A stretch of 40,000 nucleotides of DNA from Azotobacter salinestris. GTDB taxonomy: Bacteria > Pseudomonadota > Gammaproteobacteria > Pseudomonadales > Pseudomonadaceae. The translations under genes were made by a program, and so were the position numbers. Under the pieces are notes generated by a model. That model worked only from the letters and a program-made list of their open reading frames with translations. It was not told the origin of the DNA and ran no database searches. Below are positions 411-32,699 of the stretch, in pieces. How positions within the stretch are numbered: the first letter of the stretch is position 1; each line of letters begins with the position of its first letter. The stretch is taken from contig NZ_CP045302.1 in assembly GCF_009363155.1 (NCBI RefSeq), positions 4,563,194 through 4,603,193 on the forward strand, read 5' to 3'.

Positions 411-894
411 CTGGCTTCTGGAAGGCGCCATCGGGGTGAGGCCCGAATGTTGTTGTCGAACGGTATGGCGAGACGCCCGAAGGGCTCTGCGTGCGCTGTC
501 GTGGGTTTTTTCGTGGGGAAATACAGCATTAATTTATAAATGGTTCATGTTAGGATAAGCGTTTCAAAAGCAAGCGATTCGATCTGTTTCCCTTTTTGAC
601 TCAATGGATTAAGGCCATCCTGCCGCTGTCCTGAAGGGGTAGCTCGGTCAAGTCCTATTATGCTCGCAACTCTGAATTGAAAAGGCCGCGAAAGCGTCTT
701 TTTACAGGATGCTTGTCAGTGGCGCGGCTTTCTGAAAGCATCCCGCAGCTTTTACTTCCAGTGACTCCGGTTCGCTCGGTTCGGGCCTTCGGGCTTCTGC
801 CACCGTGAGGCAGGCATATCCGGCGAATCGCTTTACTGGCTCATCCCAACCCATGTGGCCTTTGGTAGGGGTCACCACTAGGAGAGGAGGCGCC

Positions 895-2817
895 ATGCCC
901 ACCATCACTCTTCCCGACGGCAGTCAACGTGCATTCGATCATCCGGTTTCGGTCGCCGAGGTCGCCCAGTCCATCGGCGCCGGCCTGGCCAAGGCCACCG
1001 TGGCCGGCAAGGTCGACGGCAGGCTGGTCGATGCCTGCGATCTGATCGACCATGATGCGACCCTGCAGATCATCACGCCGAAGGACGAGGAGGGGGTCGA
1101 GATCATCCGCCACTCCTGTGCCCACCTGGTCGGCCATGCGGTCAAGCAGCTGTATCCGACGGCGAAGATGGTGATCGGTCCGGTCATCGAGGAAGGTTTC
1201 TACTACGACATCGCCTACGAGCGTCCCTTCACGCCGGAGGACATGGCGGCCATCGAGCAGCGCATGCGCGAGCTGATCGACAAGGACTACGACGTCATCA
1301 AGAAGATGACCCCGCGCGAGCAGGTGATCGAGGTGTTCAGGTCCCGGGGCGAGGACTACAAGCTGCGCCTGGTCGACGACATGCCCGACGAGCAGGCGAT
1401 GGGGCTGTACTACCACGAGGAATACGTGGACATGTGCCGTGGTCCGCACGTGCCGAACACCCGCTTCCTCAAGGCCTTCAAGCTGACCAAGCTGTCCGGC
1501 GCTTATTGGCGCGGCGACGCCAAGAACGAGCAACTGCAGCGCGTCTACGGTACCGCCTGGGCGGACAAGAAGCAGCTGGCCGCCTACATCCAGCGCATCG
1601 AGGAGGCAGAGAAGCGCGATCATCGCAAGCTCGGCAAGCGCCTCGATCTGTTCCACACCCAGGAAGAAGCGCCGGGCATGGTCTTCTGGCATCCCAATGG
1701 CTGGATCGTCTACCAAGTGCTCGAGCAATACATGCGTACCGTCCAGCGGGAAAACGGCTATCTGGAGATCAAGACGCCGCAGGTGGTCGATCGCGTACTC
1801 TGGGAAAAGTCGGGGCACTGGGCAAACTATGCCGAGAACATGTTCACCACCGAATCGGAAAGCCGCGACTACGCGATCAAGCCGATGAACTGCCCGTGCC
1901 ATGTGCAGGTGTACAACCAGGGGCTGAAGAGCTACCGCGAGCTGCCGCTGCGTCTGGCCGAGTTCGGTGCCTGTCATCGCAACGAGCCGTCGGGTGCGCT
2001 GCACGGCATCATGCGCGTGCGCGGCTTCACCCAGGACGATGCGCACATCTTCTGCACCGAAGAGCAGATGCAGGCCGAGTCCGCCGCTTTCATCAAGCTG
2101 ACTCAACAGGTTTACGCCGACTTCGGCTTCCAGGACATCCAGCTGAAGCTGTCCACCCGTCCGGAAAAGCGCGTCGGTTCCGACGATCTGTGGGATCGTG
2201 CCGAGGGTGCGCTGGCCGCGGCCCTGGAGACTGCCGGCCTGCCCTATGATCTGCAGCCGGGCGAAGGTGCTTTCTACGGCCCGAAGATCGAGTTTTCCCT
2301 GAAGGACTGCCTGGGGCGTGTCTGGCAGTGTGGCACCCTGCAGTTGGACTTCAACCTGCCGGTCCGTCTCGGAGCCGAGTACGTCAGCGAGAACAACGAC
2401 CGCCAGCATCCGGTGATGCTGCACCGGGCGATCCTGGGCTCCTTCGAGCGTTTCATCGGCATCCTGATCGAGCACTACGAAGGCGCTTTCCCGGCCTGGC
2501 TGGCGCCGACTCAGGCGGTGATCATGAACATCACCGACAAGCAGGGCGAATTCGCGCTTGAAGTCGAGCGGATGCTCAATCAAAGCGGTTTTCGTGCCAG
2601 GTCCGACTTGAGAAACGAAAAGATCGGTTTTAAAATCCGCGAGCATACTTTGCTCAAGGTTCCCTATCTCTTGGTGGTCGGAGATCGGGAAGTTGAGACG
2701 CGAGCCGTAGCTGTGCGCACCCGCGAAGGGGTCGATCTGGGCTCGATGCCCGTCGAACAGTTCCGCGAGATGCTGGCGCAGGCGGTAGCCCGGCGTGGTC
2801 GCCAAGAATTGGAGTAA
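895..2817 (+). CDS. thrS: threonyl-tRNA synthetase
   Basis: 640 aa starting [12 protein letters not shown], with TGS, editing and class II core motifs. RBS AGGAGAGGAGG lies upstream of ATG 895. The track ORF start at 805 is an upstream extension. Confidence 0.97.
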
Positions 2818-2819
2818 TC

Positions 2820-3368
2820 ATTATTAAGCGTGAAATGAGACAAGATAGAAAAGCTCAACCGAAAGCCCCGATCAACGAGAATATCTCGGCACGCGAGGTT
2901 CGGTTAATTGGAGTGGACGGCGAGCAGATTGGCATCGTCTCGATTGATGAAGCGCTTCGCGTAGCGGAAGAGGCCAAGCTGGATCTGGTCGAGATTTCCG
3001 CTGACGCGGTACCGCCCGTGTGCCGGATCATGGACTACGGCAAGCACCTGTTCGAGAAGAAGAAGCAGGTCGCGGCGGCGAAAAAGAACCAGAAACAGGT
3101 CCAGATCAAGGAAATCAAGTTCCGACCAGGGACGGAAGAAGGGGATTACCAGGTAAAACTACGCAACCTGGTACGTTTCCTTAGCGATGGGGACAAGGCC
3201 AAGGTATCCCTGCGATTCCGCGGCCGCGAGATGGCTCACCAGGAGCTGGGCATGGAGCTGTTGAAGCGGGTCGAAACCGACCTCGTCGAATATGGCGCCG
3301 TCGAACAGCATCCGAAGATGGAAGGACGCCAACTGATCATGGTCATCGCCCCCAAAAAGAAAAAATAA
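2820..3368 (+). CDS. infC: translation initiation factor IF-3, probable non-canonical ATT start
   Basis: IF-3 sequence (REVRLIG...DYGK...). In-frame ATT ATT AAG CGT GAA precedes ATG 2835, with GGAG at 2811..2814. infC classically starts at AUU. Exact start is 2820 or 2823 (uncertain). Confidence 0.9.
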
Positions 3369-5263: not shown

Positions 5264-7642
5264 ATGAAATTCAGCGAACAATGGCTGCGGGACTGGGTCA
5301 ATCCGCAGGTGTCCCGCGACGAATTGGTGGCCCGCCTGTCCATGGCCGGTCTCGAGGTCGACAGCGTCACGCCGGTGGCGGGGGCCTTTTCCGGTGTGGT
5401 GGTGGGCGAGATCCTCGCCACCGAGCCGCATCCGGACGCCGACAAGCTGCGCGTCTGCCAGGTGAGCAACGGCAGCGAAACCTTCCAGGTGGTCTGCGGT
5501 GCGCCCAATGCCCGTCCGGGCATCAGGGTCCCCTTCGCCATGATCGGTGCCGTACTCGGTGACGACTTCAAGATCAAGAAGGCCAAGCTGCGTGGTGTGG
5601 AATCCTTCGGCATGCTCTGCTCGGCAGCCGAGCTCAGGATCAGCGAGGAGAACGACGGCCTGCTGGAACTGCCGGCCGATGCGCCGGTAGGGCAGGACAT
5701 CCGCACCTATCTCGATCTGGACGATGCCAGCATCGAGGTGGACCTGACCCCCAACCGTGGCGACTGCCTGTCCCTGGCCGGCCTGGCCCGCGAGGTAGGT
5801 GCCCTCTACGGCGCTCCGGTCGCTCGCCCGTCGGTCGCCAGCGTGCCGCCGGTACATGACGAAGTGCGTCCGGTCGAGGTGCTGGCATCGCAGGCCTGCC
5901 CTCGTTATCTGGGGCGCGTGGTGCGCAACGTCGACCTGTCGCGGCCGACTCCGCAGTGGATGGTCGAGCGCCTGCGCCGCTCCGGTGTTCGCGCCATCGA
6001 CCCGGCGGTCGATGTCACCAACTACGTGATGCTCGAGCTGGGTCAACCGATGCATGCCTTCGATCTTGCCGAGATCCATGGCGGTGTCCGCGTGCGCATG
6101 GCCGAGGAGGGCGAGAAGCTGGTCCTGCTCGACGGCCAGGAGGTCAGCCTGCGTGCCGATACCCTGGTGATCGCCGACCACCAGCGCGCCCTGGCGATCG
6201 CCGGCGTGATGGGCGGCGAACACAGTGGCGTTGCCAAGGGTACCCGTGACCTGTTCCTGGAAAGTGCCTTCTTCGACACCATCGCCATCGCTGGCAAAGC
6301 GCGCTCCTATGGTCTGCACACCGATGCCTCGCACCGCTTCGAGCGCGGTGTCGATTGGCAACTGGCCCGCGAAGCCATGGAGCGTGCCACTGCGCTGCTG
6401 CTGGAGATTGTCGGTGGCGAGCCCGGCCCCATCATCGAGGTGGTCGATCCGTCGAGCCTGCCGCAGGTGGCGCCGATCACCCTGCGTGCCGAGCGCATCG
6501 AGCAGATGCTCGGCCTGCGCATGGAGGCCGCCGAAGTCGAGCGCCTGCTGGTCGCACTGGGGCTGACGGTCAGCTCCACTGCGGCCAGCCAGTGGCAGGT
6601 TGGGGTGCCCAGCCATCGTTTCGATATCGGTCTCGAAGTGGATCTGATCGAGGAGCTCGGCCGCCTGCATGGCTACAACAACCTGCCGGTCCGCTATCCG
6701 CAGGCACGCCTGGCACCGCAGGCGCGTGCCGAGGCCCGCGGTGAACTGCCGGTGCTGCGCCGTCTGCTGGTCGCGCGCGGCTACCAGGAGGCGATCACCT
6801 ACAGCTTCATCGATCCCAAGCTGTTCGAGCTCTTCACTCCGGGCGTCGAGCCGCTGGCCCTGGCCAATCCGATTTCCGCGGACATGGCGGTCATGCGGGC
6901 CTCGCTCTGGCCTGGACTGCTCAAGGCGCTGCAGTACAACCTGAACCGCCAGCAGTCCCGCGTGCGTCTGTTCGAGAGCGGCCTGCGTTTCGTCGGTCGG
7001 CTGGACAACCTCAAGCAGGAGCCCGTGCTGGCTGGCGTCATCACCGGCAGCCGTCTGCCGGAAAGCTGGAGCCATGGCCGGGATGCGGTGGACTTCTACG
7101 ATGCCAAGGCGGATGTGGAGGCTCTGCTTGCCACCGCCGGCGCCGCCGACGAATATCGTTTCGTCAGTGGCGAGCATCCTGCGCTACATCCGGGGCAGAC
7201 CGCACGGATCGAGCGCAAGGGACGTCTGGTCGGCTTCCTGGGTGCCCTGCATCCCGAACTGGGCAAGGCGCTGGGGTTGGATCAGCCGGTCTTCCTGTTC
7301 GAGCTGGTCCTGGCGGAAATCGCTGCCGGTCGCCTGCCGGCTTTCCGCGAGCTTTCGCGCTTCCCCGAGGTGCGCCGCGATCTCGCGCTGATCGTCGATT
7401 GCGATACTCCGGCAGAGGCGGTGCTGCAGGCCATTCGCGAGGCGGCAGGGGAATATCTGACCGACCTGCGTCTGTTCGATGTGTATCAGGGTAAAGGTAT
7501 TGATCCGCAACGAAAAAGCCTGGCTGTCGGCTTGACCTGGCAACATCCATCGCGCACTCTTAACGATGATGAGGTGAACAGTACAACCCAGAACATCCTC
7601 ACCTCGCTGGAAGAAAGGTTCAATGCGACGTTAAGGAAGTAG
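5264..7642 (+). CDS. pheT: phenylalanyl-tRNA synthetase beta subunit
   Basis: 792 aa, [14 protein letters not shown]..., with tRNA-binding, B3/4, B5 and FDX-ACB regions recognisable. Confidence 0.97.
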
Positions 7643-8306: not shown

Positions 8307-8335
8307 TTCCACTTTTCAGAAGCTTAATATATAGT
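8307..8335 (+). promoter_or_regulatory. candidate sigma70 promoter for tRNA-Pro
   Basis: TTCCAC, 17 nt, TATAGT, about 30 nt upstream of the tRNA 5' end. Confidence 0.35.
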
Positions 8336-8366
8336 TCGACCCGCTCCAGCGAGTTGGGGCAAAGAG

Positions 8367-8444
<78 letters not shown>

Positions 8445-8460
8445 ATGAATTCAATGACTT

Positions 8461-8490
8461 AGCCGCTTTCGAGCGGTTTTGTTATTTTTG
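8461..8490 (+). terminator. rho-independent terminator after the tRNA
   Basis: CCGCT-ttcg-AGCGG followed by TTTTGTTATTTTT. Confidence 0.55.
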
Positions 8491-8522
8491 GCCTAGTGAC
8501 TTTTCAAGTAACTCGGCCTTTT

Positions 8523-9692
8523 TTATCCCTGCCTCCTTTTCAGGATCGTCAGCGCCGGAGCGCGACTGTCGGTTGCTGATACCTTGTTCGCCGCATCAAT
8601 CAGCTGGTCGAGTTCTGCCGCCGAATAGTGGCTGGTGATGCTTCCATTCTTGTGGCCCAATAGGGCCTTCCTGTCCTCCTCGGTTACGCCTGCCGCCCTA
8701 AGCCGTCTGCCAAACGTATGCTTTAGGTCGTGGATGCGTATCGAGGCGAATCCTGGGTGAGCCGGCGTCTTGTGGATCTCCTCCCACTTGGCAGCCGACC
8801 TAACCCTGGCCTTCCTCCAGGCGCTGTCGTTCATCCGGTGGACTGCAGTTGGCCCGAACTGGTCTGGATTTCCGTAGGGGAACACCAGTGATGGGTGTAG
8901 GCCGCGCTGCCCATCAATCACCCGCCTGGCTACGTCATTCAGAACGACAAGACGCTCGTCGCGGTTCTTAACGCCAGACTGCTCACGCCTCCCACCGAAT
9001 TCTGCCGGGATCAGGAAAACGCTGGTCCCGAGTTCTGGCACGGCGATTTCCCATTCCCACCTGAGCTTGCAAACCTCCTGCTCTCGGCACCCGGTGTTAA
9101 CCTTGTACAAGGCCATTCTCCGAAGGTGGTCGGGAAGCTCCGCGAACAGCAGGCTCTGTTCCTCCCACGACAGCGGGTACGGTTTTCGGCTGGCCCGCTT
9201 CTCATCCAGTTTGGCGATCATCGGCACTGTGTCGAGCCACGGTTTGCTGTTGTCGTCCCGCCACTTCCTAGCGCACAGGTTCAGGATCCTGATTACCCTC
9301 TCCAGCGCGATGTTCACCGTCCTGTTCGACGCTCCGCCTTGGAGCTTGTCCTTTATGTAGGGAGCCAAGGACCTGTCATCTATGCGGGACAGTGGTAGAT
9401 CGCCTATGTACGAGTCGAGCTGCTCCAGGTAGATCGCCGTCAGCCAGATGGAAGGCTGGTTCTGGAACTCGATCAGATAGCGGGTTGCGGCCTCCTGCCA
9501 CTGGATGACAGGGCGAACCCCGTACACTTTTTCCTGCCGCAACTGCTCCAGCCGATGGATCAGGTACTGCTCTGCTTCTTCCCGGTCACAAGTTCCAGTG
9601 CTTTCCTGAATCCGTTCTCCTTTGTACCTTTTGTCGATTTTCCAGATGCCGTTCGGCATTTTCTGGAGCCCTGAGATTGTTTTTCGCGCCAT
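8523..9692 (-). CDS. int: tyrosine-type phage integrase
   Basis: 389 aa. C-terminal catalytic signature ...IRIHDLKHTFGRRLRAAGV...LLGHKNGSITSHYS (R..HxxR..Y). Adjacent to the tRNA. Confidence 0.95.
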   Translation of the reverse strand: MARKTISGLQKMPNGIWKIDKRYKGERIQESTGTCDREEAEQYLIHRLEQLRQEKVYGVRPVIQWQEAATRYLIEFQNQPSIWLTAIYLEQLDSYIGDLPLSRIDDRSLAPYIKDKLQGGASNRTVNIALERVIRILNLCARKWRDDNSKPWLDTVPMIAKLDEKRASRKPYPLSWEEQSLLFAELPDHLRRMALYKVNTGCREQEVCKLRWEWEIAVPELGTSVFLIPAEFGGRREQSGVKNRDERLVVLNDVARRVIDGQRGLHPSLVFPYGNPDQFGPTAVHRMNDSAWRKARVRSAAKWEEIHKTPAHPGFASIRIHDLKHTFGRRLRAAGVTEEDRKALLGHKNGSITSHYSAAELDQLIDAANKVSATDSRAPALTILKRRQG

Positions 9693-13310: not shown

Positions 13311-13802
13311 TCAGTGGCGGGTTTCGATGAGGTCGAGAAGCTCTTGGAACCGATCGGCGAAGAACAGCGGCTGAGTCTCGCGCGGGTTGCTCGGGCTGGT
13401 GGCGTTCTTTCCGTACTGGAGGCCGGGCCCAGTGAGCGCCCAGAAGGTCTTGACCTTTTCCGGCGCCTTGGTCGAAGCCCGTTGCTTGGCTTCCAGGAGG
13501 CCCGCCTGTTCCAGCGCTTTGTTGGCCTTGATCGCCGACATCGCGATCCCGTGCTCCTTGAGCAGGTGCGTCAGGCTGAAGGCTGGCAGCGATGATCCGG
13601 ATGTAACGTGGCCGGCCGGTGCATCCACGGCGTAGGAGGGGAGCAGGCCAACCGGGTCGACGCCGTGGCGGGAGAAGGCGGCGCCGAACATCTGCAGCTT
13701 GCTCGACTCGCACACGTTCAGCGATCGGGCGACGATCTCAATGGATGCCACGACTACCGGGAGTTCGGCGACATCGGCAGGGCGTGAAACAGGGGGTTTC
13801 AA
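13311..13802 (-). repeat. dispersed direct repeat copy 1 (about 490 bp, pairs with 19515..20003)
   Basis: The encoded C-terminal domains align over their whole length (LKPPVS...NVCESSKLQM.GAAFSRHGVDPVGLLPSYAVDAPAGHVT...PRETQPLFFA.RF). The DNA is visibly similar. Confidence 0.85.
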
Positions 13803-14120
13803 CTGGTACTGGCCAGTCCTGCGGATCGTTGGAAGGACTTCGGCGGTGACCCACTTCTTGAAGCGCTTTGCCTCGGGCTTCTGGCTGCCGAGGATCGCGG
13901 TATAGAGGCCTGACTCGTTGATGACCGTGATCCCGCGATTTCCAAAACCTGCTCCGCGCAGGTTTTGCTTTTCGTCATCATCAAGGCGGGTAGTCATGTT
14001 GAAGGCATCGGAGTAGCCGAGCGACTCTGCTACGTCCATTGCGATCCACCACAGTTCGCCGTCGATCTCGACGACGCGGACTTCATGCTGCTCGAATTGG
14101 AACGGGGTGATGCTCGTCAT
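13311..14120 (-). CDS. Bro-N domain antirepressor-like protein (269 aa)
   Basis: N-terminus FQFEQHEVRVVEIDGELWWIAMDVAESLGY...INESGLYTAILGSQKPEAKRFKKWVTAEVLP is the Bro-N signature. The C-terminal 160 aa are shared with CDS 19515..20297. Confidence 0.88.
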   Translation of the reverse strand: MTSITPFQFEQHEVRVVEIDGELWWIAMDVAESLGYSDAFNMTTRLDDDEKQNLRGAGFGNRGITVINESGLYTAILGSQKPEAKRFKKWVTAEVLPTIRRTGQYQLKPPVSRPADVAELPVVVASIEIVARSLNVCESSKLQMFGAAFSRHGVDPVGLLPSYAVDAPAGHVTSGSSLPAFSLTHLLKEHGIAMSAIKANKALEQAGLLEAKQRASTKAPEKVKTFWALTGPGLQYGKNATSPSNPRETQPLFFADRFQELLDLIETRH

Positions 14121-14200: not shown

Positions 14201-14794
14201 TCAGATTTTCAGCCCGGCTTCCCAGGCTTTCTTGATGCGCGAGCTTTGGTAGTCGGTGCGGGCCTTGAGGTTGGCCATGGCGGCGACGACGAATGCGAAC
14301 AGCTCTTCGGTCGAGATCGGCAGTTCGCCGGGCTCGGTGATTGCCTTCAAGACCTCGGGGATGGTCATGACGCAGGCGTCGTTTGGAATCGGCTTGATCT
14401 GCTCACGGCCCATGTGATCGAAGGAGACAAGCCAGCGGCGGGTTGTCAGGGAGGGGACTGGCCGGACTTGCTCCTGGGCCACTTCCTTGTCCAGCACGTC
14501 GAGCACCCACTTACGGAACTCGGCGGCAATCTTGGTACGGGCGAACATGGCCAGCAGGTGAGCGCCGCGCAAGGAGAAAATTCGGGTTTCCTGCAAGACG
14601 CCGTTAGGGTCGGTCAACTTGACCGAACCTGTCATCTGATCGGTGAACTCTTCGGCGTTGCGTGCGTAGATGCGATTGATGCTGCTGGCATCTGCGTATC
14701 CCAAGGCTAAACCGATCTGGTTTGCCCTCAGCCACGGCTTGCCGTTGCGGTCGATGACGTCGAATTGGGTGTCGCGGAAGGCTAGTGCTTGCAT
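14201..14794 (-). CDS. Bro-N/antirepressor-like protein (197 aa)
   Basis: Start ATG 14794 (RBS AAGGAG). N-terminus FRDTQFDVIDRNGKPWLRANQIGLALGY...RIFSLRGAHLLAMFARTKIAAEFRKWVLDVL. Confidence 0.8.
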   Translation of the reverse strand: MQALAFRDTQFDVIDRNGKPWLRANQIGLALGYADASSINRIYARNAEEFTDQMTGSVKLTDPNGVLQETRIFSLRGAHLLAMFARTKIAAEFRKWVLDVLDKEVAQEQVRPVPSLTTRRWLVSFDHMGREQIKPIPNDACVMTIPEVLKAITEPGELPISTEELFAFVVAAMANLKARTDYQSSRIKKAWEAGLKI

Positions 14795-14950
14795 AGCGAA
14801 GCTCCTTTGCTTTGGTGAGGAGTTCGCCGCCACCCATTGGTCGTTGGGCATTGGAGGCGAACCGCGCAGGGCGACCAAGACCGGGGCAAAGGAACCCGGC
14901 GAGCCCGAGAGCTCCCCTACGCGGCCCGCCATAAAGCGTTTCGCGGGCAC

Positions 14951-14979
14951 AAAAAAAGCGCCTGCGAATGGTGGGCGCT
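14951..14979 (-). terminator. rho-independent terminator (minus strand)
   Basis: Minus-sense AGCGCCCACCATTCGCAGGCGCT followed by TTTTTTT. Confidence 0.7.
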
Positions 14980-15077
14980 GTTGCGCCTTTGCTGATCCGG
15001 GTTGGTCGTCCCGGCCGCTGAATTTGCAGCGGCAGGGCAAAGGTAATCCCGGAAGCATCAGGCGTCAACGGCACATC

Positions 15078-19514: not shown

Positions 19515-20003
19515 TCAGTGGCGTGTTTCGCTGGCCTCGATCAGGTCCAGCAACTGCGGGAACCGCTCGGCGAAGAACAGCGGCTGTGTCTCGCGTGGGT
19601 TGTTCGGGCTGGTGACGTTCTTCCCGTATTGAAGACCGTGCTCGGTGAGCGCCCAAAAGTTCTTGGCCCTGTCAGGCGACTTGGTGGACGGCCGCTGCTG
19701 TATCTCCAGAATGCCGGCCTTGGCCAGCTCCTTGTTGGCCTTGATAGCCGACATCGGGATGCCGTGCTCCTTGAGCAGGTGCGTCAGGCTGAATGCCGGC
19801 AGCGATGAGCTGGCGGTGACGTGGCCTGCGGGAGCGTCGACGGCGTAGGAGGGCAGCAGGCCCACCGGGTCGACTCCGTGGCGGCTGAATGCGGCGCCGA
19901 GCATCTGGAGCTTGGAAGACTCGCAGACGTTGAGCATTCTGGCGGCGACTTCCAGAGCTGCGGACAGATCGGCCAGGGCGGGCGGTGAAACCGGGGGTTT
20001 CAG
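19515..20003 (-). repeat. dispersed direct repeat copy 2 (pairs with 13311..13802)
   Basis: See copy 1. Same orientation, about 6.2 kb apart. Confidence 0.85.
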
Positions 20004-20297
20004 TTGAGCTGGTTCCGCCTTCTTCAGCTTCGCCAGGACTTTTCGGCGAACTCCCTTCGATTCGCGCATCGCAACCAGCATGCACTGGTCCTGGGTAAGC
20101 TCGATGGTCTCCGACTCTTTCCCGAACTTCAGGCTTACAAAAATTTTGTAAGCTTCGCCTTCCAACTCGTCCTTGATGCGGTCGACGAACACGTTGTTCC
20201 GCAGCTCAGATTCCCCGAACTCTTTGCGGGCTTCGTTGACGATCTCCAGTAGCTCGGTACTGTTCATGGTTGCAGGTGTTTCAACGATGCTGCTCAT
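19515..20297 (-). CDS. Rha-like phage regulatory protein fused to the shared antirepressor C-terminal domain (260 aa)
   Basis: N-terminus (LTQDQCMLVAMRESKGVRRKVL) resembles the Rha family. The C-terminal 160 aa are paralogous to 13311..14120. Confidence 0.8.
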   Translation of the reverse strand: MSSIVETPATMNSTELLEIVNEARKEFGESELRNNVFVDRIKDELEGEAYKIFVSLKFGKESETIELTQDQCMLVAMRESKGVRRKVLAKLKKAEPAQLKPPVSPPALADLSAALEVAARMLNVCESSKLQMLGAAFSRHGVDPVGLLPSYAVDAPAGHVTASSSLPAFSLTHLLKEHGIPMSAIKANKELAKAGILEIQQRPSTKSPDRAKNFWALTEHGLQYGKNVTSPNNPRETQPLFFAERFPQLLDLIEASETRH

Positions 20298-22800: not shown

Positions 22801-22842
22801 AAAATACAAAACGTATTTCTAAAGGTCAATACGAAACGTATT
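22801..22842 (-). promoter_or_regulatory. PL promoter with two OL operators
   Basis: Minus-sense TTGACC, 17 nt, TATTTT. Two palindromes AATAC-N5-GTATT (22803..22817 and 22828..22842) overlap the -10 and -35. The same palindrome occurs at OR (26400..26414). Confidence 0.6.
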
Positions 22843-22862
22843 TTATTTTTCCGTGGCGTATT

Positions 22863-22884
22863 AAAAAGCCCGCACTCGGCGGGC
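22863..22884 (-). terminator. rho-independent terminator of the SOS-gene transcript
   Basis: GCCCGC-actcg-GCGGGC with an A5 run on the plus strand (U-run in minus sense). Confidence 0.65.
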
Positions 22885-22903
22885 TTCGTTGGATAGGGGC
22901 GGA

Positions 22904-23149
22904 TCAGTCAGAGGTAGGGGCTGTCCAGGTCAGATGTACGGCGCCGTCCTCGCGCTTGGCCATCGTTACTGATTCCTCGTCGGCGAGATCCTCAAGTAGC
23001 TGTTCCCAGGCGTCCAGGGGTTCCTCTGGCAGCCGGCTGACCAGGACACATCGGCTGGCCTGAGCCCTAGGACTGAGAATCTGCTTCTTGATTCGCAGGG
23101 CGAGGAGTTCATAGGGGGTTGGTGTGCGGGGTAGTGCTTTACGTGCCAT
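22904..23149 (-). CDS. small SOS-box-controlled protein, paralog 1 (81 aa)
   Basis: RBS AAGGAGA. Paralogous to 23321..23572 (YEL...RI.K.I.SP.AQ....V...RLP.EP.D.W...LE..A..E...............V.LTWT.P). LexA box lies 24 nt upstream. Confidence 0.75.
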   Translation of the reverse strand: MARKALPRTPTPYELLALRIKKQILSPRAQASRCVLVSRLPEEPLDAWEQLLEDLADEESVTMAKREDGAVHLTWTAPTSD

Positions 23150-23172
23150 ACAGTCGTCTCCTTACTGCTTCG

Positions 23173-23188
23173 CTGTATATCCATACAG
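23173..23188. promoter_or_regulatory. LexA SOS box
   Basis: CTGTATATCCATACAG is a perfect CTGT-N8-ACAG / CTGTAT-N4-ATACAG. It overlaps a candidate -10 (TACTGT), with TTGATC 17 nt upstream on the minus strand. Confidence 0.8.
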
Positions 23189-23320
23189 TAGTAATAACGA
23201 AGCGCTGGATCAAGGAGAAAAGCTATGGCGATTTGATGGTATGTAAACTTTTCGAGCAGGTTCTGAGGGCGGGAGAGACGAAAGCCCCGCGCTGGGCAGG
23301 CTTGAGGGGAGGGGGCGGTG

Positions 23321-23572
23321 CTACTCGGCCGGAACGGTCCAGGTAAGCCGGACGCCATCTCCGCCGACGTGCTGGACCTTGACGTTCTCGGCTTCCGCAA
23401 CCTCTTCGAGGAAGCGCGCCCAATCAGCCGCTGGCTCATCTGGCAGGCGGTGGACTGTCACGTCCCTGGCCTGCTGCGCCTTTGGCGAGTTGATGATCTT
23501 CTGGATGCGGGCGCCCATCAGCTCATAGCTGGACGGCTGGCGGACGGCGGTTTTCTTGGCTGGCTTGGCCAT
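23321..23572 (-). CDS. small SOS-box-controlled protein, paralog 2 (83 aa)
   Basis: Paralog of 22904..23149. LexA box lies 16 nt upstream of the ATG. Confidence 0.75.
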   Translation of the reverse strand: MAKPAKKTAVRQPSSYELMGARIQKIINSPKAQQARDVTVHRLPDEPAADWARFLEEVAEAENVKVQHVGGDGVRLTWTVPAE

Positions 23573-23587
23573 GCAGCTTACTCATTG

Positions 23588-23603
23588 CTGTATTTGTATA
23601 CAG
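23588..23603. promoter_or_regulatory. LexA SOS box
   Basis: CTGTATTTGTATACAG is a perfect CTGTAT-N4-ATACAG. It is fused to the candidate -10 TATACT on the minus strand. Confidence 0.8.
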
Positions 23604-23748
23604 TATAAGGGGTGCCAGGGGGAGAGGTGGAGTAGCTGCGGACGGCCGAAGGGCGTGAACCAGGTAGAGCTTTGAGCGCGTCGCTATGGCGCGGCTAAAG
23701 GCAGCTGCTACCTTTGGTTAATCGATTCTGCCAAGGAGGGTGACGACG

Positions 23749-24006
23749 ATGATCAACTCAATCCTTTCTCTTCTGCTCGCAGGTGGCCTGCTGACTACTG
23801 GTGGCTGTCTGGCCGCCATGAGTTCGCATGGCCAAGATCTGGATGCTTTAGACGATGATGAGCTGCTTGATGGCTTAGGCGATCTCACCCCCAGGGAGCG
23901 GAGGAGGCGCCTGGCGGTATACCGGCGGCGTGTGCGCGATCAGATCGCCGAGGAGCAGGAGATGGCTTGGGTACGGGCGCGGATTAAGGGGTACGTGGGG
24001 GACTGA
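23749..24006 (+). CDS. small exported or membrane-anchored protein (85 aa, possible lipoprotein)
   Basis: ATG 23749 lies 9 nt after AAGGAGG. Begins MINSILSLLLAGGLLTTGGC. The charged C-terminus is D/E/R-rich. The track GTG at 23740 has no spacer to the SD. Confidence 0.65.
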   Translation: MINSILSLLLAGGLLTTGGCLAAMSSHGQDLDALDDDELLDGLGDLTPRERRRRLAVYRRRVRDQIAEEQEMAWVRARIKGYVGD

Positions 24007-24043: not shown

Positions 24044-24502
24044 TCAAAGTGATTTCCTGCAAATATTGATTATTATGGTGCTTATGGTCGCAACCTGAAT
24101 TACGCTGTTTGTTGCAAGCGAGAGTGCGGACCGCATAAATATCTCTGCGGAAGCTGATGCTAGAGTAAGTAGCGAGGCTCCAAATGTTAGCGCCAATGTA
24201 ATTATGCAGTAAAAGTAAATAATGAAGAAAATATCTAGGTATTTGTTATTTTTGTATTTTTTGAATGTCGTTGATTGTGAAAAGTTCAAAAGGATAGCGA
24301 TTACTGCAGCCAAGAACCCAAGCATTGTGAATGCGTAGGTTGCGAGTATTACGGCAACATTTGGCCTTTGTGCGAATAGGCTGACTGAGTTCTCAGGGGC
24401 TGAGCTTATAACGATTTTGTAAATCAGCAGCAAGATTGGCCCAGGTATGGACATCAGAAAAACGAAGAATACGGCTAAAGTCCACTTTGTTAGTTTGTCC
24501 AT
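24044..24502 (-). CDS. rexB: RexB-like four-helix membrane protein (152 aa)
   Basis: Four hydrophobic segments. AT-rich codon usage. Immediately downstream of the RexA-like gene in the cI operon position. From memory, size, topology and local similarity resemble lambda RexB (ILATYAFTMLGFLAAVIAIL vs LSSYAGTMIAILIAALTFL). Confidence 0.6.
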   Translation of the reverse strand: MDKLTKWTLAVFFVFLMSIPGPILLLIYKIVISSAPENSVSLFAQRPNVAVILATYAFTMLGFLAAVIAILLNFSQSTTFKKYKNNKYLDIFFIIYFYCIITLALTFGASLLTLASASAEIFMRSALSLATNSVIQVATISTIIINICRKSL

Positions 24503-25343
24503 TTTCTGTGAAGGCCTTTAGCTGTTCCTGTAGTTGGTTGTTTTCTCTAATTTTTTCCTCGATTATTCCGGGTATATCTTTTTCGTCACGAGATCCAAGG
24601 TCATCAGAAATCACTCCTTTCCCTGCTACGTAAATATCTAGCATAGCAGAAGATGCATCATTTTTTGCTTTGATCATAAACTTTTCAAGGCCATCGCTTG
24701 ATGTGGCCTCAACAACCTTTTCAATTAATGGCTTAATGCTGCGCATTCTTCTTGGCTTCAAAATAATCTCTATGGATTCCAGCTCTTCTGTGTCAGCTTC
24801 GCCAGTAAATACATTGAGAAAATGCTTGGCGAGAGTGTTTTTTTGTGTCACCTCGATGGTTGTTCTTCCTATGTATTCCATCTTGACGGCTTGTTCTTTG
24901 GTTGCCTGGTAAATCAATGGCTTAATGCAAAAGCTCCAGCTGCCATTTTCAGTATAGTTAAGGAGTTCATTTATTAGGTTTGTAAATGCATCGAATTTTG
25001 GGGAGAGTGACGTTGATGAAAACCCGAAGTAATATTCTTTGAGTATGATGTAAGAGGCAAAGCCAATTTTTTCGTCTTGCCCAAGTATTTTATTTATTTC
25101 GCTGATTGATAGGTTTGTGGTATTGATTTTTTTGAACTTCTCACTGTCACGCGTCATGATTAGCACGCAGACATTTCCTAGAAGCCTCTGTAGGTAGATG
25201 TGCTCGCCGTTGTGTCTAAAGCTGCCTTTGAATTGAGGGCTGTCAAATTCTGCAAATGAAGACAAAAATCCTGATAAGTCTATTAAGTGAGACTCGTTAG
25301 AGATTTTGTGTTGCAAGTAATATCCAAAATAGCTAATCTTCAT
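24393..25343 (-). CDS. rexA: RexA-like protein (316 aa)
   Basis: AT-rich ORF with RBS AAAGG. Co-linear motif matches to lambda RexA as I remember it: IDLSGFLSS/INLSVFLNS, KIGFASY/SLGFPSF, IKPL..(11)..YIGRTTIEV/IEPL..(11)..FIGRTTVKV, IEIILKPRRMRSIK/LDIVIKPKFKRDIK. The 3' end overlaps rexB-like by 110 nt. Confidence 0.65.
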   Translation of the reverse strand: MKISYFGYYLQHKISNESHLIDLSGFLSSFAEFDSPQFKGSFRHNGEHIYLQRLLGNVCVLIMTRDSEKFKKINTTNLSISEINKILGQDEKIGFASYIILKEYYFGFSSTSLSPKFDAFTNLINELLNYTENGSWSFCIKPLIYQATKEQAVKMEYIGRTTIEVTQKNTLAKHFLNVFTGEADTEELESIEIILKPRRMRSIKPLIEKVVEATSSDGLEKFMIKAKNDASSAMLDIYVAGKGVISDDLGSRDEKDIPGIIEEKIRENNQLQEQLKAFTENGQTNKVDFSRILRFSDVHTWANLAADLQNRYKLSP

Positions 25344-25433
25344 TTTGACCTTTTTTCATTAAAAGCTAACAAAGCTTATGTTTTGTGCGCGTAACTTTCT
25401 CGGGGTTGGTGTATTTTTTGTGACCTCTTTAAT

Positions 25434-25583
25434 TTATTTACATAAGCTCTCACACGGCACCCCATCCCCATCCCCATCCCCATTCCGATCCAGCCGGCCA
25501 TTCCCGCACTCGTTCAGGTGAAACTCAGCCCCTCCCAACTTCTCATCAGCAAGCGGGGCGGCGACGAACAGCTTTGATCGCAT
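25434..25583 (-). CDS. 49-aa micro-ORF with an Excalibur-type calcium-binding motif
   Basis: ATG 25583 preceded by AAGGAAG. Encodes ...ECGNGRLDRNGDGDGDGVPCESLCK. DGDGDGVPCE fits DxDxDGxxCE. The GDGDGDG run is encoded by the (CCCCAT)4 repeat. Below the track cutoff. Confidence 0.45.
   Translation of the reverse strand: MRSKLFVAAPLADEKLGGAEFHLNECGNGRLDRNGDGDGDGVPCESLCK
25460..25483. repeat. (CCCCAT)x4 hexamer repeat, which is (ATGGGG)x4 on the minus strand
   Basis: Perfect 4-unit tandem repeat at the GC-rich/AT-rich junction. Four G4 tracts in the minus-sense transcript. Confidence 0.9.
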
Positions 25584-25681
25584 AAGGCTTCCTTGCGTTG
25601 CTGATGGTTGTGCTGAGTTGGTTACATCCGGACCCCGCCCGGCGGCCCCCTACCCCCTGACCTTGCTCGGCGGGCAGGCGC

Positions 25682-26377
25682 TCAGAGCACGCCTTTTGGC
25701 GCCTTCATGTCGATAACTCGACCAATCACGTCCCAGTTGTCGTCCATCTCGACCTGCTTGAATTCCTTGTTCAGCGGGACCAGGTACTCGCGCCCGCCAT
25801 CGTAGATGTACTGCTTGAACGTCGTTTCGCCGTCGCGGTGCTTGGCGACGTAAAACTTGCCGCTGACCAGGTCGAATCCTTCCGGACGCACCAGAATCCG
25901 CGTTCCTTCGGGGAAGCTGGGAGAGCCAGGCGCGGTCATGGATGGGCCCTTGACGACCAGCCAGTAGCCGTCCTGCCCGGCGTTTTCTGTCGACGGCAGC
26001 CACTCTTCCGGTGCCTGACGGCTGAAGTTCTCCGGCGATTCTGCGCGCTGGCCGGCGATGACCCAACTGATCACCGGGTAGTCGCGCAGGCTGCGGGATG
26101 GCTGCAGCGCTAGCTCAACATTCTGGTGGCGCTGAGGGGGCTGCTGTATCGATAGCGCCTCAATCCCGAGTGCACTGAGCATTGCGTTGATGTCAGCCAG
26201 TCCAGGCTCACGGCGGCCATTCAACCAATGCGCGATTGCGCCTTGGGTTTTCCCAATACGTTCGGCCAGTTGGGCTTGGGTTACGCGCTGCTGCGCCATA
26301 GCGCTTCGCACGGCTTTGATCCATTCATCCATGGGCGAAATGCTACAGCCCGTATTAATTTGCGCAACGCACGGCAT
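25682..26377 (-). CDS. cI: lambda cI-like prophage repressor (HTH-XRE plus S24 LexA-like autopeptidase)
   Basis: HTH is QRVTQAQLAERIGKTQGAIAHWLNGRREP. The C-terminal domain WLVVKGPSMTAPGSPSFPEGTRILVRPEG...GETTFKQYIYDGGREYLVPLN is close to the lambda cI CTD (Ser in GPSM, Lys in TFKQ). An Ala-Gly is present (VIAGQ). Alternative start at ATG 26332. Confidence 0.92.
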   Translation of the reverse strand: MPCVAQINTGCSISPMDEWIKAVRSAMAQQRVTQAQLAERIGKTQGAIAHWLNGRREPGLADINAMLSALGIEALSIQQPPQRHQNVELALQPSRSLRDYPVISWVIAGQRAESPENFSRQAPEEWLPSTENAGQDGYWLVVKGPSMTAPGSPSFPEGTRILVRPEGFDLVSGKFYVAKHRDGETTFKQYIYDGGREYLVPLNKEFKQVEMDDNWDVIGRVIDMKAPKGVL

Positions 26378-26416
26378 GTATTAATCCTTGCATGTTATGA
26401 ATACGAAATGTATTTT
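26342..26416. promoter_or_regulatory. OR operator region with PR (and presumably PRM)
   Basis: Full palindrome AATACGAAATGTATT at 26400..26414. Half-sites GTATTAAT at 26352 and 26378. PR is TTGCAT (26388), 17 nt, TATTTT (26411). Confidence 0.6.

Positions 26417-32624: not shown

Positions 32625-32699
<75 letters not shown>

Follow-up and report, generated by a model that had tools for sequence, protein, structure and literature searches.

The closest described relatives of the genes analyzed here lie on Pseudomonas chromosomes and belong to the protein family DUF1654. In several strains of P. fluorescens, DUF1654 mutants are specifically sensitive to cisplatin, and this phenotype is stronger for DUF1654 than for the endonuclease encoded downstream. 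The study in question (Price et al., bioRxiv 10.1101/072470), the sole source of functional data in the literature searched, proposed a role in DNA repair and cited a LexA prediction for close homologues. We analyzed a stretch of 40,000 nucleotides (nt) from Azotobacter salinestris (NZ_CP045302.1, positions 4,563,194 to 4,603,193; hereafter the window), a piece of bacterial chromosome that carries a lambdoid prophage. The immunity region of this prophage holds two small tandem genes, a distal one encoding 83 amino acids (aa) and a proximal one encoding 81 aa, each of which follows a perfect LexA (SOS) box. The best explanation, to which we assign a probability of roughly 0.6, is that both are LexA-repressed, damage-induced DUF1654 accessory genes that would serve damage tolerance as the chromosomal copies do. 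That DUF1654 is predicted to be LexA-controlled and is tied to cisplatin survival is already known; what the window contributes is a further case, from an Azotobacter prophage and in the form of a tandem pair.

The chromosomal genes of P. fluorescens (AO356_00980 and PFL_2098) share with the window genes the family, the size and a directly upstream CTGT-N8-ACAG, and their products are about 50% identical to the 83-aa protein. However, the chromosomal Pseudomonas gene heads a two-gene operon with endonuclease I, whereas the window genes are monocistronic, paired and located in an immunity region without an intact nuclease gene. The same family, an SOS box and the slot between cI and the left operon recur in the phage genes F116 p28, LESphi3 P31_18, PA8 gp28, PS-1 gp25 and YMC11/07/P54 gp55 and gp56, the last of these phages carrying two DUF1654 copies as the window does. 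The Pseudomonas phage proteins are only 31-37% identical to the window proteins, and the arrangements differ as well: DUF1654 points towards cI in F116, LESphi3 and PA8 whereas the window genes point away from it, and the YMC11/07/P54 copies are divergent around one shared box region whereas those of the window are tandem with a box each.

Both window proteins clearly belong to Pfam DUF1654 (PF07867) and to phrog_2707. The initial annotation had recognized no family, and this has to be revised in favor of one that comes with a published LexA prediction and a cisplatin phenotype. The matches cover positions 1-68 and 1-70 of the 70 profile positions. As their bit scores lie far above the PF07867 gathering cut-off of 27 bits (Table 1), and as comparison with five orthologues from Azotobacter prophages gives a ratio of nonsynonymous to synonymous substitution rates (dN/dS) of 0.08-0.32, which denotes purifying selection, the open reading frames (ORFs) are real genes. 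Alignments show single-domain proteins with the DUF1654 core Y-E...R-I-x-K...S-P-x-A-Q...W...V...W. The closest database proteins to the 83-aa protein are 84-95% identical, the named ones coming from A. chroococcum, A. salinestris and A. beijerinckii, and the 81-aa product has a counterpart of 100% identity among the annotated proteins of A. salinestris. The proposed paralogy of the two products is borne out by 45% identity over 77 residues (E 7e-23). Each paralogue has nearer relatives elsewhere (89% and 72% identity), so the tandem pair does not stem from a recent duplication. This leaves the suggestion that a duplicated unit implies two targets unsupported, all the more as relatives carry two to three boxed copies.

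The charge of both proteins is split, with an isoelectric point (pI) of 10.6-11.6 for the first 30 residues and of 4.0-4.7 from residue 41 onward. The AlphaFold2 model of the 83-aa protein (mean predicted local distance difference test, pLDDT, 88) begins with a basic N-terminal tail that is disordered and continues with a helix, a short helix, a strand, an acidic helix and a beta-hairpin. Neither protein matched a solved structure in a sequence search of the PDB, a family in NCBIfam or a defense-system model in PADLOC, and 50,697 phage records searched at the DNA level with the 1.1-kb region yielded no match. An exhaustive profile search of 1.84 billion representatives placed the family at 195 clusters at 50% identity, and nearly all of the 150 representatives listed are stand-alone proteins of 75-110 aa. 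Two long profile matches that were considered as fusions turned out to be beta-propeller repeat proteins with a spurious match to the hairpin motif. DUF1654, a family of small cytoplasmic proteins, is confined to the Pseudomonas/Azotobacter group of the Pseudomonadaceae and their phages: genome matches are nearly all to Pseudomonas, and 45 of the 46 phage records are Pseudomonas phages.

The two perfect boxes, their fusion to candidate -10 elements and the monocistronic layout of the genes, all put forward in the initial annotation, were confirmed. CTGT-N8-ACAG occurs at two sites in the window, which are these two boxes, where 0.38 are expected. The full CTGTAT-N4-ATACAG was found twice with zero mismatches against none in 100 shuffles, and a scan of the window allowing up to two mismatches revealed no further site. 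Box 1 has the same sequence as the box 5' of phage F116 gene p28. The gap between box and start codon, originally given as 16-24 nt, measures 23 nt in the case of the proximal gene and 15 nt in that of the distal one. Putative promoter signals are shared with relatives: TATACTGTAT, from the -10/box region of the distal gene, is kept in two Azotobacter prophage loci of our survey (L083 and L085), TTGATC-17 nt-TACTGT also lies 5' of the second DUF1654 gene in L083, and the region upstream of the F116 gene reads TTGAAA-17 nt-TACTGT. A generic promoter scan did not call the TACTGT and TATACT hexamers at the boxes.

Downstream of the proximal gene, the hairpin AAGCCCGCC/GGCGGGCUU has a minimum free energy of -18.4 kcal/mol (z-score -2.1); it was missed by a consensus terminator scan. 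The terminator-like hairpin 3' of the distal gene folds no better than shuffled sequences, and read-through into the proximal gene is therefore possible. By its predicted signals, each gene is thus a self-contained unit with its own promoter-like elements, ribosome-binding site and terminator, the strong one being that 3' of the proximal gene. SOS-driven read-through into the leftward promoter PL was also considered as a conserved function and was set aside because of this strong terminator and because the genes of F116, LESphi3 and PA8 have the opposite orientation.

The link between box and gene extends far beyond the window. Our survey combined 80 Pseudomonadaceae genome loci with 80 contigs from IMG/VR and a number of records of phages and prophages, which together provided 166 DUF1654 genes with enough upstream sequence. 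An exact CTGT-N8-ACAG stands directly 5' of the gene in 76 of the 80 genome loci and is usually the sole one in 12 kb. In the pooled survey, 141 of 166 genes have the exact box and 157 of 166 have a site with at most two mismatches to CTGTAT-N4-ATACAG, against a background of 30 boxes in 1.73 Mb (0.017 per kb). The few exceptions carry near-consensus palindromes instead, for example GTGTAT-N4-ATACAC or CTGG-N8-CCAG. When the upstream regions of five Azotobacter prophages were aligned, TAT(A/G)CTGTAT-N4-ATACAG, a ribosome-binding GAG and the ATG were invariant while the flanks diverge. This link constitutes a strong phylogenetic footprint for predicted LexA control and agrees with the LexA prediction that Price et al. 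quote for PFL_2098. By sequence criteria, the two window genes count as members of the LexA regulon.

One IMG/VR sub-clade (L118, L128, L138, L140, L142, L146, L148, L150, L156-L159 and L162-L164) has DUF1654 directly after cI, at a distance of about 160 nt. Among eight of its upstream regions that we read, CTGT...ACAG is replaced in four by GTGTA-N6-TACAC (mostly GTGTAT-N4-ATACAC) and in four by CTGTGTATCCATACA(T/A). These palindromes could be a weakened LexA site or the site of another repressor.

We infer LexA binding, induction by damage in the prophage and a biochemical activity of the proteins from sequence, and the following scheme is to be read accordingly as a proposal. In an undamaged lysogen, host LexA would occupy the box that overlaps each -10 and block RNA polymerase. 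DNA damage would activate RecA and trigger self-cleavage of LexA, upon which both promoters would fire independently of the phage repressor. Two short transcripts would be made, that of the proximal gene stopping at the strong terminator just before PL. The proteins would then have a target shared by all hosts, be it a conserved host protein or damaged DNA, rather than the phage repressor, and would help the damaged cell and the phage template to tolerate damage, which is the same job as that of the chromosomal copies. The phage copies probably do what the chromosomal copies do. A target common to all hosts, and no particular repressor, is indicated by the uncoupling of DUF1654 and cI types: DUF1654 proteins that are 95-98% identical stand beside cI proteins of only 22-26% identity, cI proteins of 92% identity stand beside DUF1654 proteins of only 50% identity, and the two similarities show a Spearman correlation of 0.16 over 2278 pairs.

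Several points weigh against this explanation. The structural model suggested in the initial annotation proved confident, yet Foldseek comparison of it with PDB and BFVD gave no match below E 0.001; the weak resemblances that appeared, winged-helix-like and SepF-like, were given no weight as evidence. The profile search of 1.84 billion representatives revealed no informative domain fusion, and no convincing -35 was apparent on reading the promoter region of the distal gene. Moreover, the cisplatin phenotype comes from chromosomal homologues that are about 50% identical and reside in an endonuclease I operon, and the phage copies may not share it. Finally, at least 57 of the 79 phage contigs have DUF1654 in a fixed place by cI, which fits a function in the phage life cycle better than an optional gene of benefit to the host.

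The setting of the two genes agrees with the immunity-region position proposed for them in the initial annotation, as they lie between a cI-rexA-rexB block (24044-26377) and an operator-flanked PL-like promoter (Table 1). The 13-nt palindrome ATACRAAAYGTAT is present in three copies in the window where 0.08 are expected, and its copies are likely cI operators. A promoter bracketed by two of them is best read as PL with its operators, and since the DUF1654 pair has rexB on one side and PL on the other, it falls within the immunity region. To the right of the immunity region follow cro, cII and a replication gene and, further right, terminase and portal genes. On the other side, the leftward early operon holds an exonuclease gene in addition to three Ant/BRO/KilAC-type homologues, and owing to the latter the prophage already has conventional antirepressor-like genes under PL control. 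The tRNA-Pro(GGG) gene is the likely attachment site of the prophage.

Table 1. Coordinates of the features discussed, in window positions; promoter elements and the ribosome-binding site are candidates read from the sequence.
Feature	Position	Strand	Remarks
Distal DUF1654 gene	23321..23572	-	83 aa; PF07867 E 3.9e-24, 84.6 bits; phrog_2707 E 6.7e-23
Proximal DUF1654 gene	22904..23149	-	81 aa; PF07867 E 1.3e-20, 73.3 bits; phrog_2707 E 9.2e-23
SOS (LexA) box 1	23173..23188		Strandless palindrome; CTGTATATCCATACAG, minus-strand reading CTGTATGGATATACAG; perfect CTGTAT-N4-ATACAG
SOS (LexA) box 2	23588..23603		Strandless palindrome; CTGTATTTGTATACAG; perfect CTGTAT-N4-ATACAG
Candidate -10 TATACT, distal gene	23602..23607	-	Overlaps box 2 by two bases
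Candidate -35 TTGATC, proximal gene	23208..23213	-	17-nt spacer to TACTGT
Candidate -10 TACTGT, proximal gene	23185..23190	-	Overlaps box 1 by four bases
Putative ribosome-binding site AAGGAG, proximal gene	23158-23163	-	
Predicted intrinsic terminator 3' of proximal gene	22862..22887	-	9-bp G+C-rich stem, then U run
Weak terminator-like hairpin 3' of distal gene	23286..23300	-	Flagged by terminator scan
PL-like promoter	22801..22829	-	TTGACC-17 nt-TATTTT; left border of immunity region
cI-operator-like sites ATACRAAAYGTAT	22804-22816, 22829-22841		Flank PL-like promoter
Third copy of ATACRAAAYGTAT	26401-26413		Between cI and cro
cI-like repressor	25682..26377	-	Helix-turn-helix and full Peptidase_S24 domain (E 3.5e-19); Ala108-Gly109, Ser146, Lys188
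rexA/rexB-like abortive-infection pair	24044..25343	-	Pfam RexA E 5.5e-59, RexB E 2.7e-6
Ant/BRO/KilAC-type 'anti-repressor' homologues (three)	13311-14120, 14201-15058, 19515-20297	-	Leftward early operon
Integrase	8523-9692		Next to tRNA-Pro
tRNA-Pro(GGG)	8368-8444	+	Adjoins integrase
thrS and infC	805-3368		Chromosomal flank
tRNA-Met	32625-32699	+	Within prophage late region

The rexAB pair was also recognized by PADLOC (RexA 6e-89, RexB 1.8e-36). It forms a low-GC island (38-41% GC versus about 60% in the flanks), which suggests a recent horizontal acquisition into the Azotobacter prophage. As listed, the rexA and rexB ORFs overlap by 110 nt, and the start of rexB is therefore probably internal. 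Just 3' of cI, a 49-aa ORF (25434-25583, minus strand) represents the remnant of an Excalibur C-terminus of an Endonuclease_1 gene, with 68% identity over 31 aa (E 5e-13) to a nuclease whose gene immediately follows cI in a prophage of A. chroococcum. Within the remnant, a tandem repeat, CCCCAT x5 (25460-25491), expands an Asp-Gly motif. It appears that the nuclease was lost from the slot 3' of cI, which rexAB now occupies. Divergent from the distal DUF1654 gene, an 88-aa ORF (23740-24006, plus strand) encodes a protein whose N-terminus is hydrophobic and which has a lipobox-like GGC; we found no family match for it. Three further Azotobacter prophages have ORFs of 37-64% identity at the equivalent place, and the SOS box is 137 nt away.

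Variable neighbors and a constant address also characterize the phage family members in the survey. An S24-type cI lies within 5 kb of DUF1654 in 57 of 79 IMG/VR contigs, upstream and on the same strand, in some cases only about 160 nt away. Across the phage survey the orientation of DUF1654 relative to cI varies whereas its position is constant. Related Azotobacter prophages carry two to three DUF1654 genes, each copy examined having its own box. In L083, hicAB is located between DUF1654 copies (6280-6899), and in L166 parE/phd and a DUF2442 gene are found there (8325-9396). The DUF1654 units thus seem to flank a cargo hot-spot in these prophages. Since both copy number and cargo vary among them, the tandem pair of the window is one state of a variable slot.

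The constant address invites a bolder proposal, in which box and DUF1654 together form a conserved, repressor-independent second input to the lysis-lysogeny region of Pseudomonas-group lambdoid phages rather than cargo borrowed from the host. The protein would be made as cI is cleaved and would act on a conserved host component (the RecA filament, S24 cleavage, a nuclease or the division machinery) so that induction succeeds, the chromosomal copies being the host version. We offer this tentatively and consider it unlikely. If it were true, the chromosomal copies would represent a lineage-specific SOS effector with a new mechanism.

In a rival explanation, DUF1654 would tune the SOS switch itself, in the manner of DinI or RecX, by binding RecA filaments or the S24 repressors of the LexA/cI type, thereby speeding or delaying self-cleavage and setting the timing of induction. 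The proteins are small, SOS-induced by prediction and lineage-restricted, and the phage gene nearly always has an S24-type cI in its vicinity. Independence of repressor specificity is what one would expect if the target were RecA or the conserved S24 domain, and a cisplatin-sensitive mutant fits a weakened SOS response. Phage GIL01 gp7 and Acinetobacter DdrR provide precedents for such small accessory proteins. However, there is no similarity to DinI by hhalign (probability 0.9%, with an approximate DinI query), DinI was not among the PDB Foldseek matches listed, and the chromosomal copies pair with endonuclease I and not with recA or lexA. On balance, we regard such a role as fairly improbable.

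The pairing with endonuclease I points to another explanation. A gene for an endonuclease I with a signal peptide follows DUF1654 in 53-54 of the 80 genome loci. We measured 52 such pairs; in 46 of them, at most 20 nt separate the DUF1654 stop codon from the first in-frame start codon of the nuclease gene, and a typical gap of about 4 nt indicates a tight operon. From the conserved order of SOS box, DUF1654 and endonuclease I (Pseudomonas loci L002-L080), we predict that many Pseudomonas species place their periplasmic endonuclease I under SOS induction; we did not find SOS induction of endonuclease I through such an operon discussed in the literature searched. DUF1654 could accordingly be a partner of endonuclease I, a cytoplasmic inhibitor or handling factor, and the phage copies could control a phage or host nuclease during the SOS response. 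Beyond the operon, this idea draws on the Endonuclease_1/Excalibur gene beside cI in related Azotobacter prophages and its 49-aa remnant in the window, on the acidic C-terminal half of the proteins, and on the strong DUF1654 versus weak nuclease phenotype (Price et al., bioRxiv 10.1101/072470), which is the pattern of an antidote and its toxin. Yet no nuclease gene is nearby in 72 of 79 phage contigs, and the window lacks an intact one. In L083 the nuclease gene is located 36 nt 3' of cI on the same strand. It thus seems to share a transcript with cI and not with DUF1654, which is LexA-gated by prediction, and the nuclease would be left unprotected. Endonuclease I enzymes such as Vvn are, moreover, inactive in the reducing cytoplasm, where no inhibitor is needed. 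A nuclease partner is therefore improbable in our view.

The initial annotation had named LexA-controlled antirepressors, as in coliphage 186 (Tum) or the Gifsy phages, as candidates. Such proteins would bind and inactivate the repressor of their own prophage or those of other resident prophages. Known LexA-gated antirepressors likewise have a LexA box before a small gene of the immunity region, and the position beside cI is conserved. Like the window genes, these antirepressor genes are small phage genes behind a LexA box that are expressed upon damage independently of the phage repressor, such expression being a prediction in the case of the window. Unlike DUF1654, with which they share no homology, they are matched to their repressor, and the repressors of the phages concerned lack self-cleavage. 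The cI of the window, in contrast, has a complete S24 domain with the Ala-Gly bond, Ser146 and Lys188; the claim that it looks RecA-cleavable is thus upheld, and with these autocleavage residues cI can respond to RecA directly and requires no helper. Further, DUF1654 type is not coupled to cI type, most genome-derived members lie outside prophages and have no repressor to target, neither protein matched a Pfam or PHROGs antirepressor family, and Ant/BRO-type candidates are already present in the left operon. An antirepressor role is accordingly disfavored and appears quite unlikely.

That DUF1654 is an SOS-timed inhibitor of cell division or another host-takeover factor is highly improbable: SOS-linked division inhibitors are known from prophages of enterobacteria and the model weakly resembles the FtsZ-binding C-terminal domain of SepF (3zih_B, 8hzt and 3p04_B; E 0.17-0.71, template modelling score about 0.3-0.5), but these fold matches are non-significant with a large root mean square deviation, no known division-inhibitor family was matched in the libraries searched, and Pseudomonas already has a LexA-controlled sulA.

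Taken together, the survey indicates that the LexA box practically belongs to the gene in some 95% of the 166 family members, that the address of the unit in temperate phages is fixed between cI and PL whatever the repressor type, and that the slot around it swaps defense and toxin-antitoxin cargo. Neither the breadth of the box-gene link nor the fixed immunity-region address across Pseudomonas-group phages was found in the literature searched. The combination of box and DUF1654 provides a simple sequence marker for immunity regions in Pseudomonas and Azotobacter prophages, and a small protein that is kept LexA-gated, by prediction, in the phages of an entire bacterial family and beside a RecA-sensing repressor is a well-defined target for finding a missing SOS function in these genera.

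Two further known systems help to place the window genes. Cargo of the lambda rexAB type (morons) resembles DUF1654 in occupying the slot between cI and PL, in having its own expression signals and in its variable surroundings, the cargo of this slot being rexAB in the window and an endonuclease, hicAB or parE/phd in relatives. However, rexAB is co-transcribed with cI in the lysogen, whereas the DUF1654 genes should, by prediction, stay silent as long as LexA is intact. With their own promoter-like signals, the strong terminator and variable neighbors, the latter show some features of a moron, yet the conserved address by cI suggests something beyond optional cargo. The second system is DinI. 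No sequence relationship to it exists, and the DUF1654 model has the order helix-helix-strand-helix-strand-strand, in which it differs from DinI. DinI and the dinI-like genes of enterobacterial prophages are nonetheless comparable, as they encode acidic alpha/beta proteins of about 80 aa that are LexA-regulated and, like DUF1654, occur both on chromosomes and in lambdoid prophages as stand-alone SOS units. The dinI-like genes may offer the nearest analogy for the two window genes as stand-alone SOS units of a prophage.

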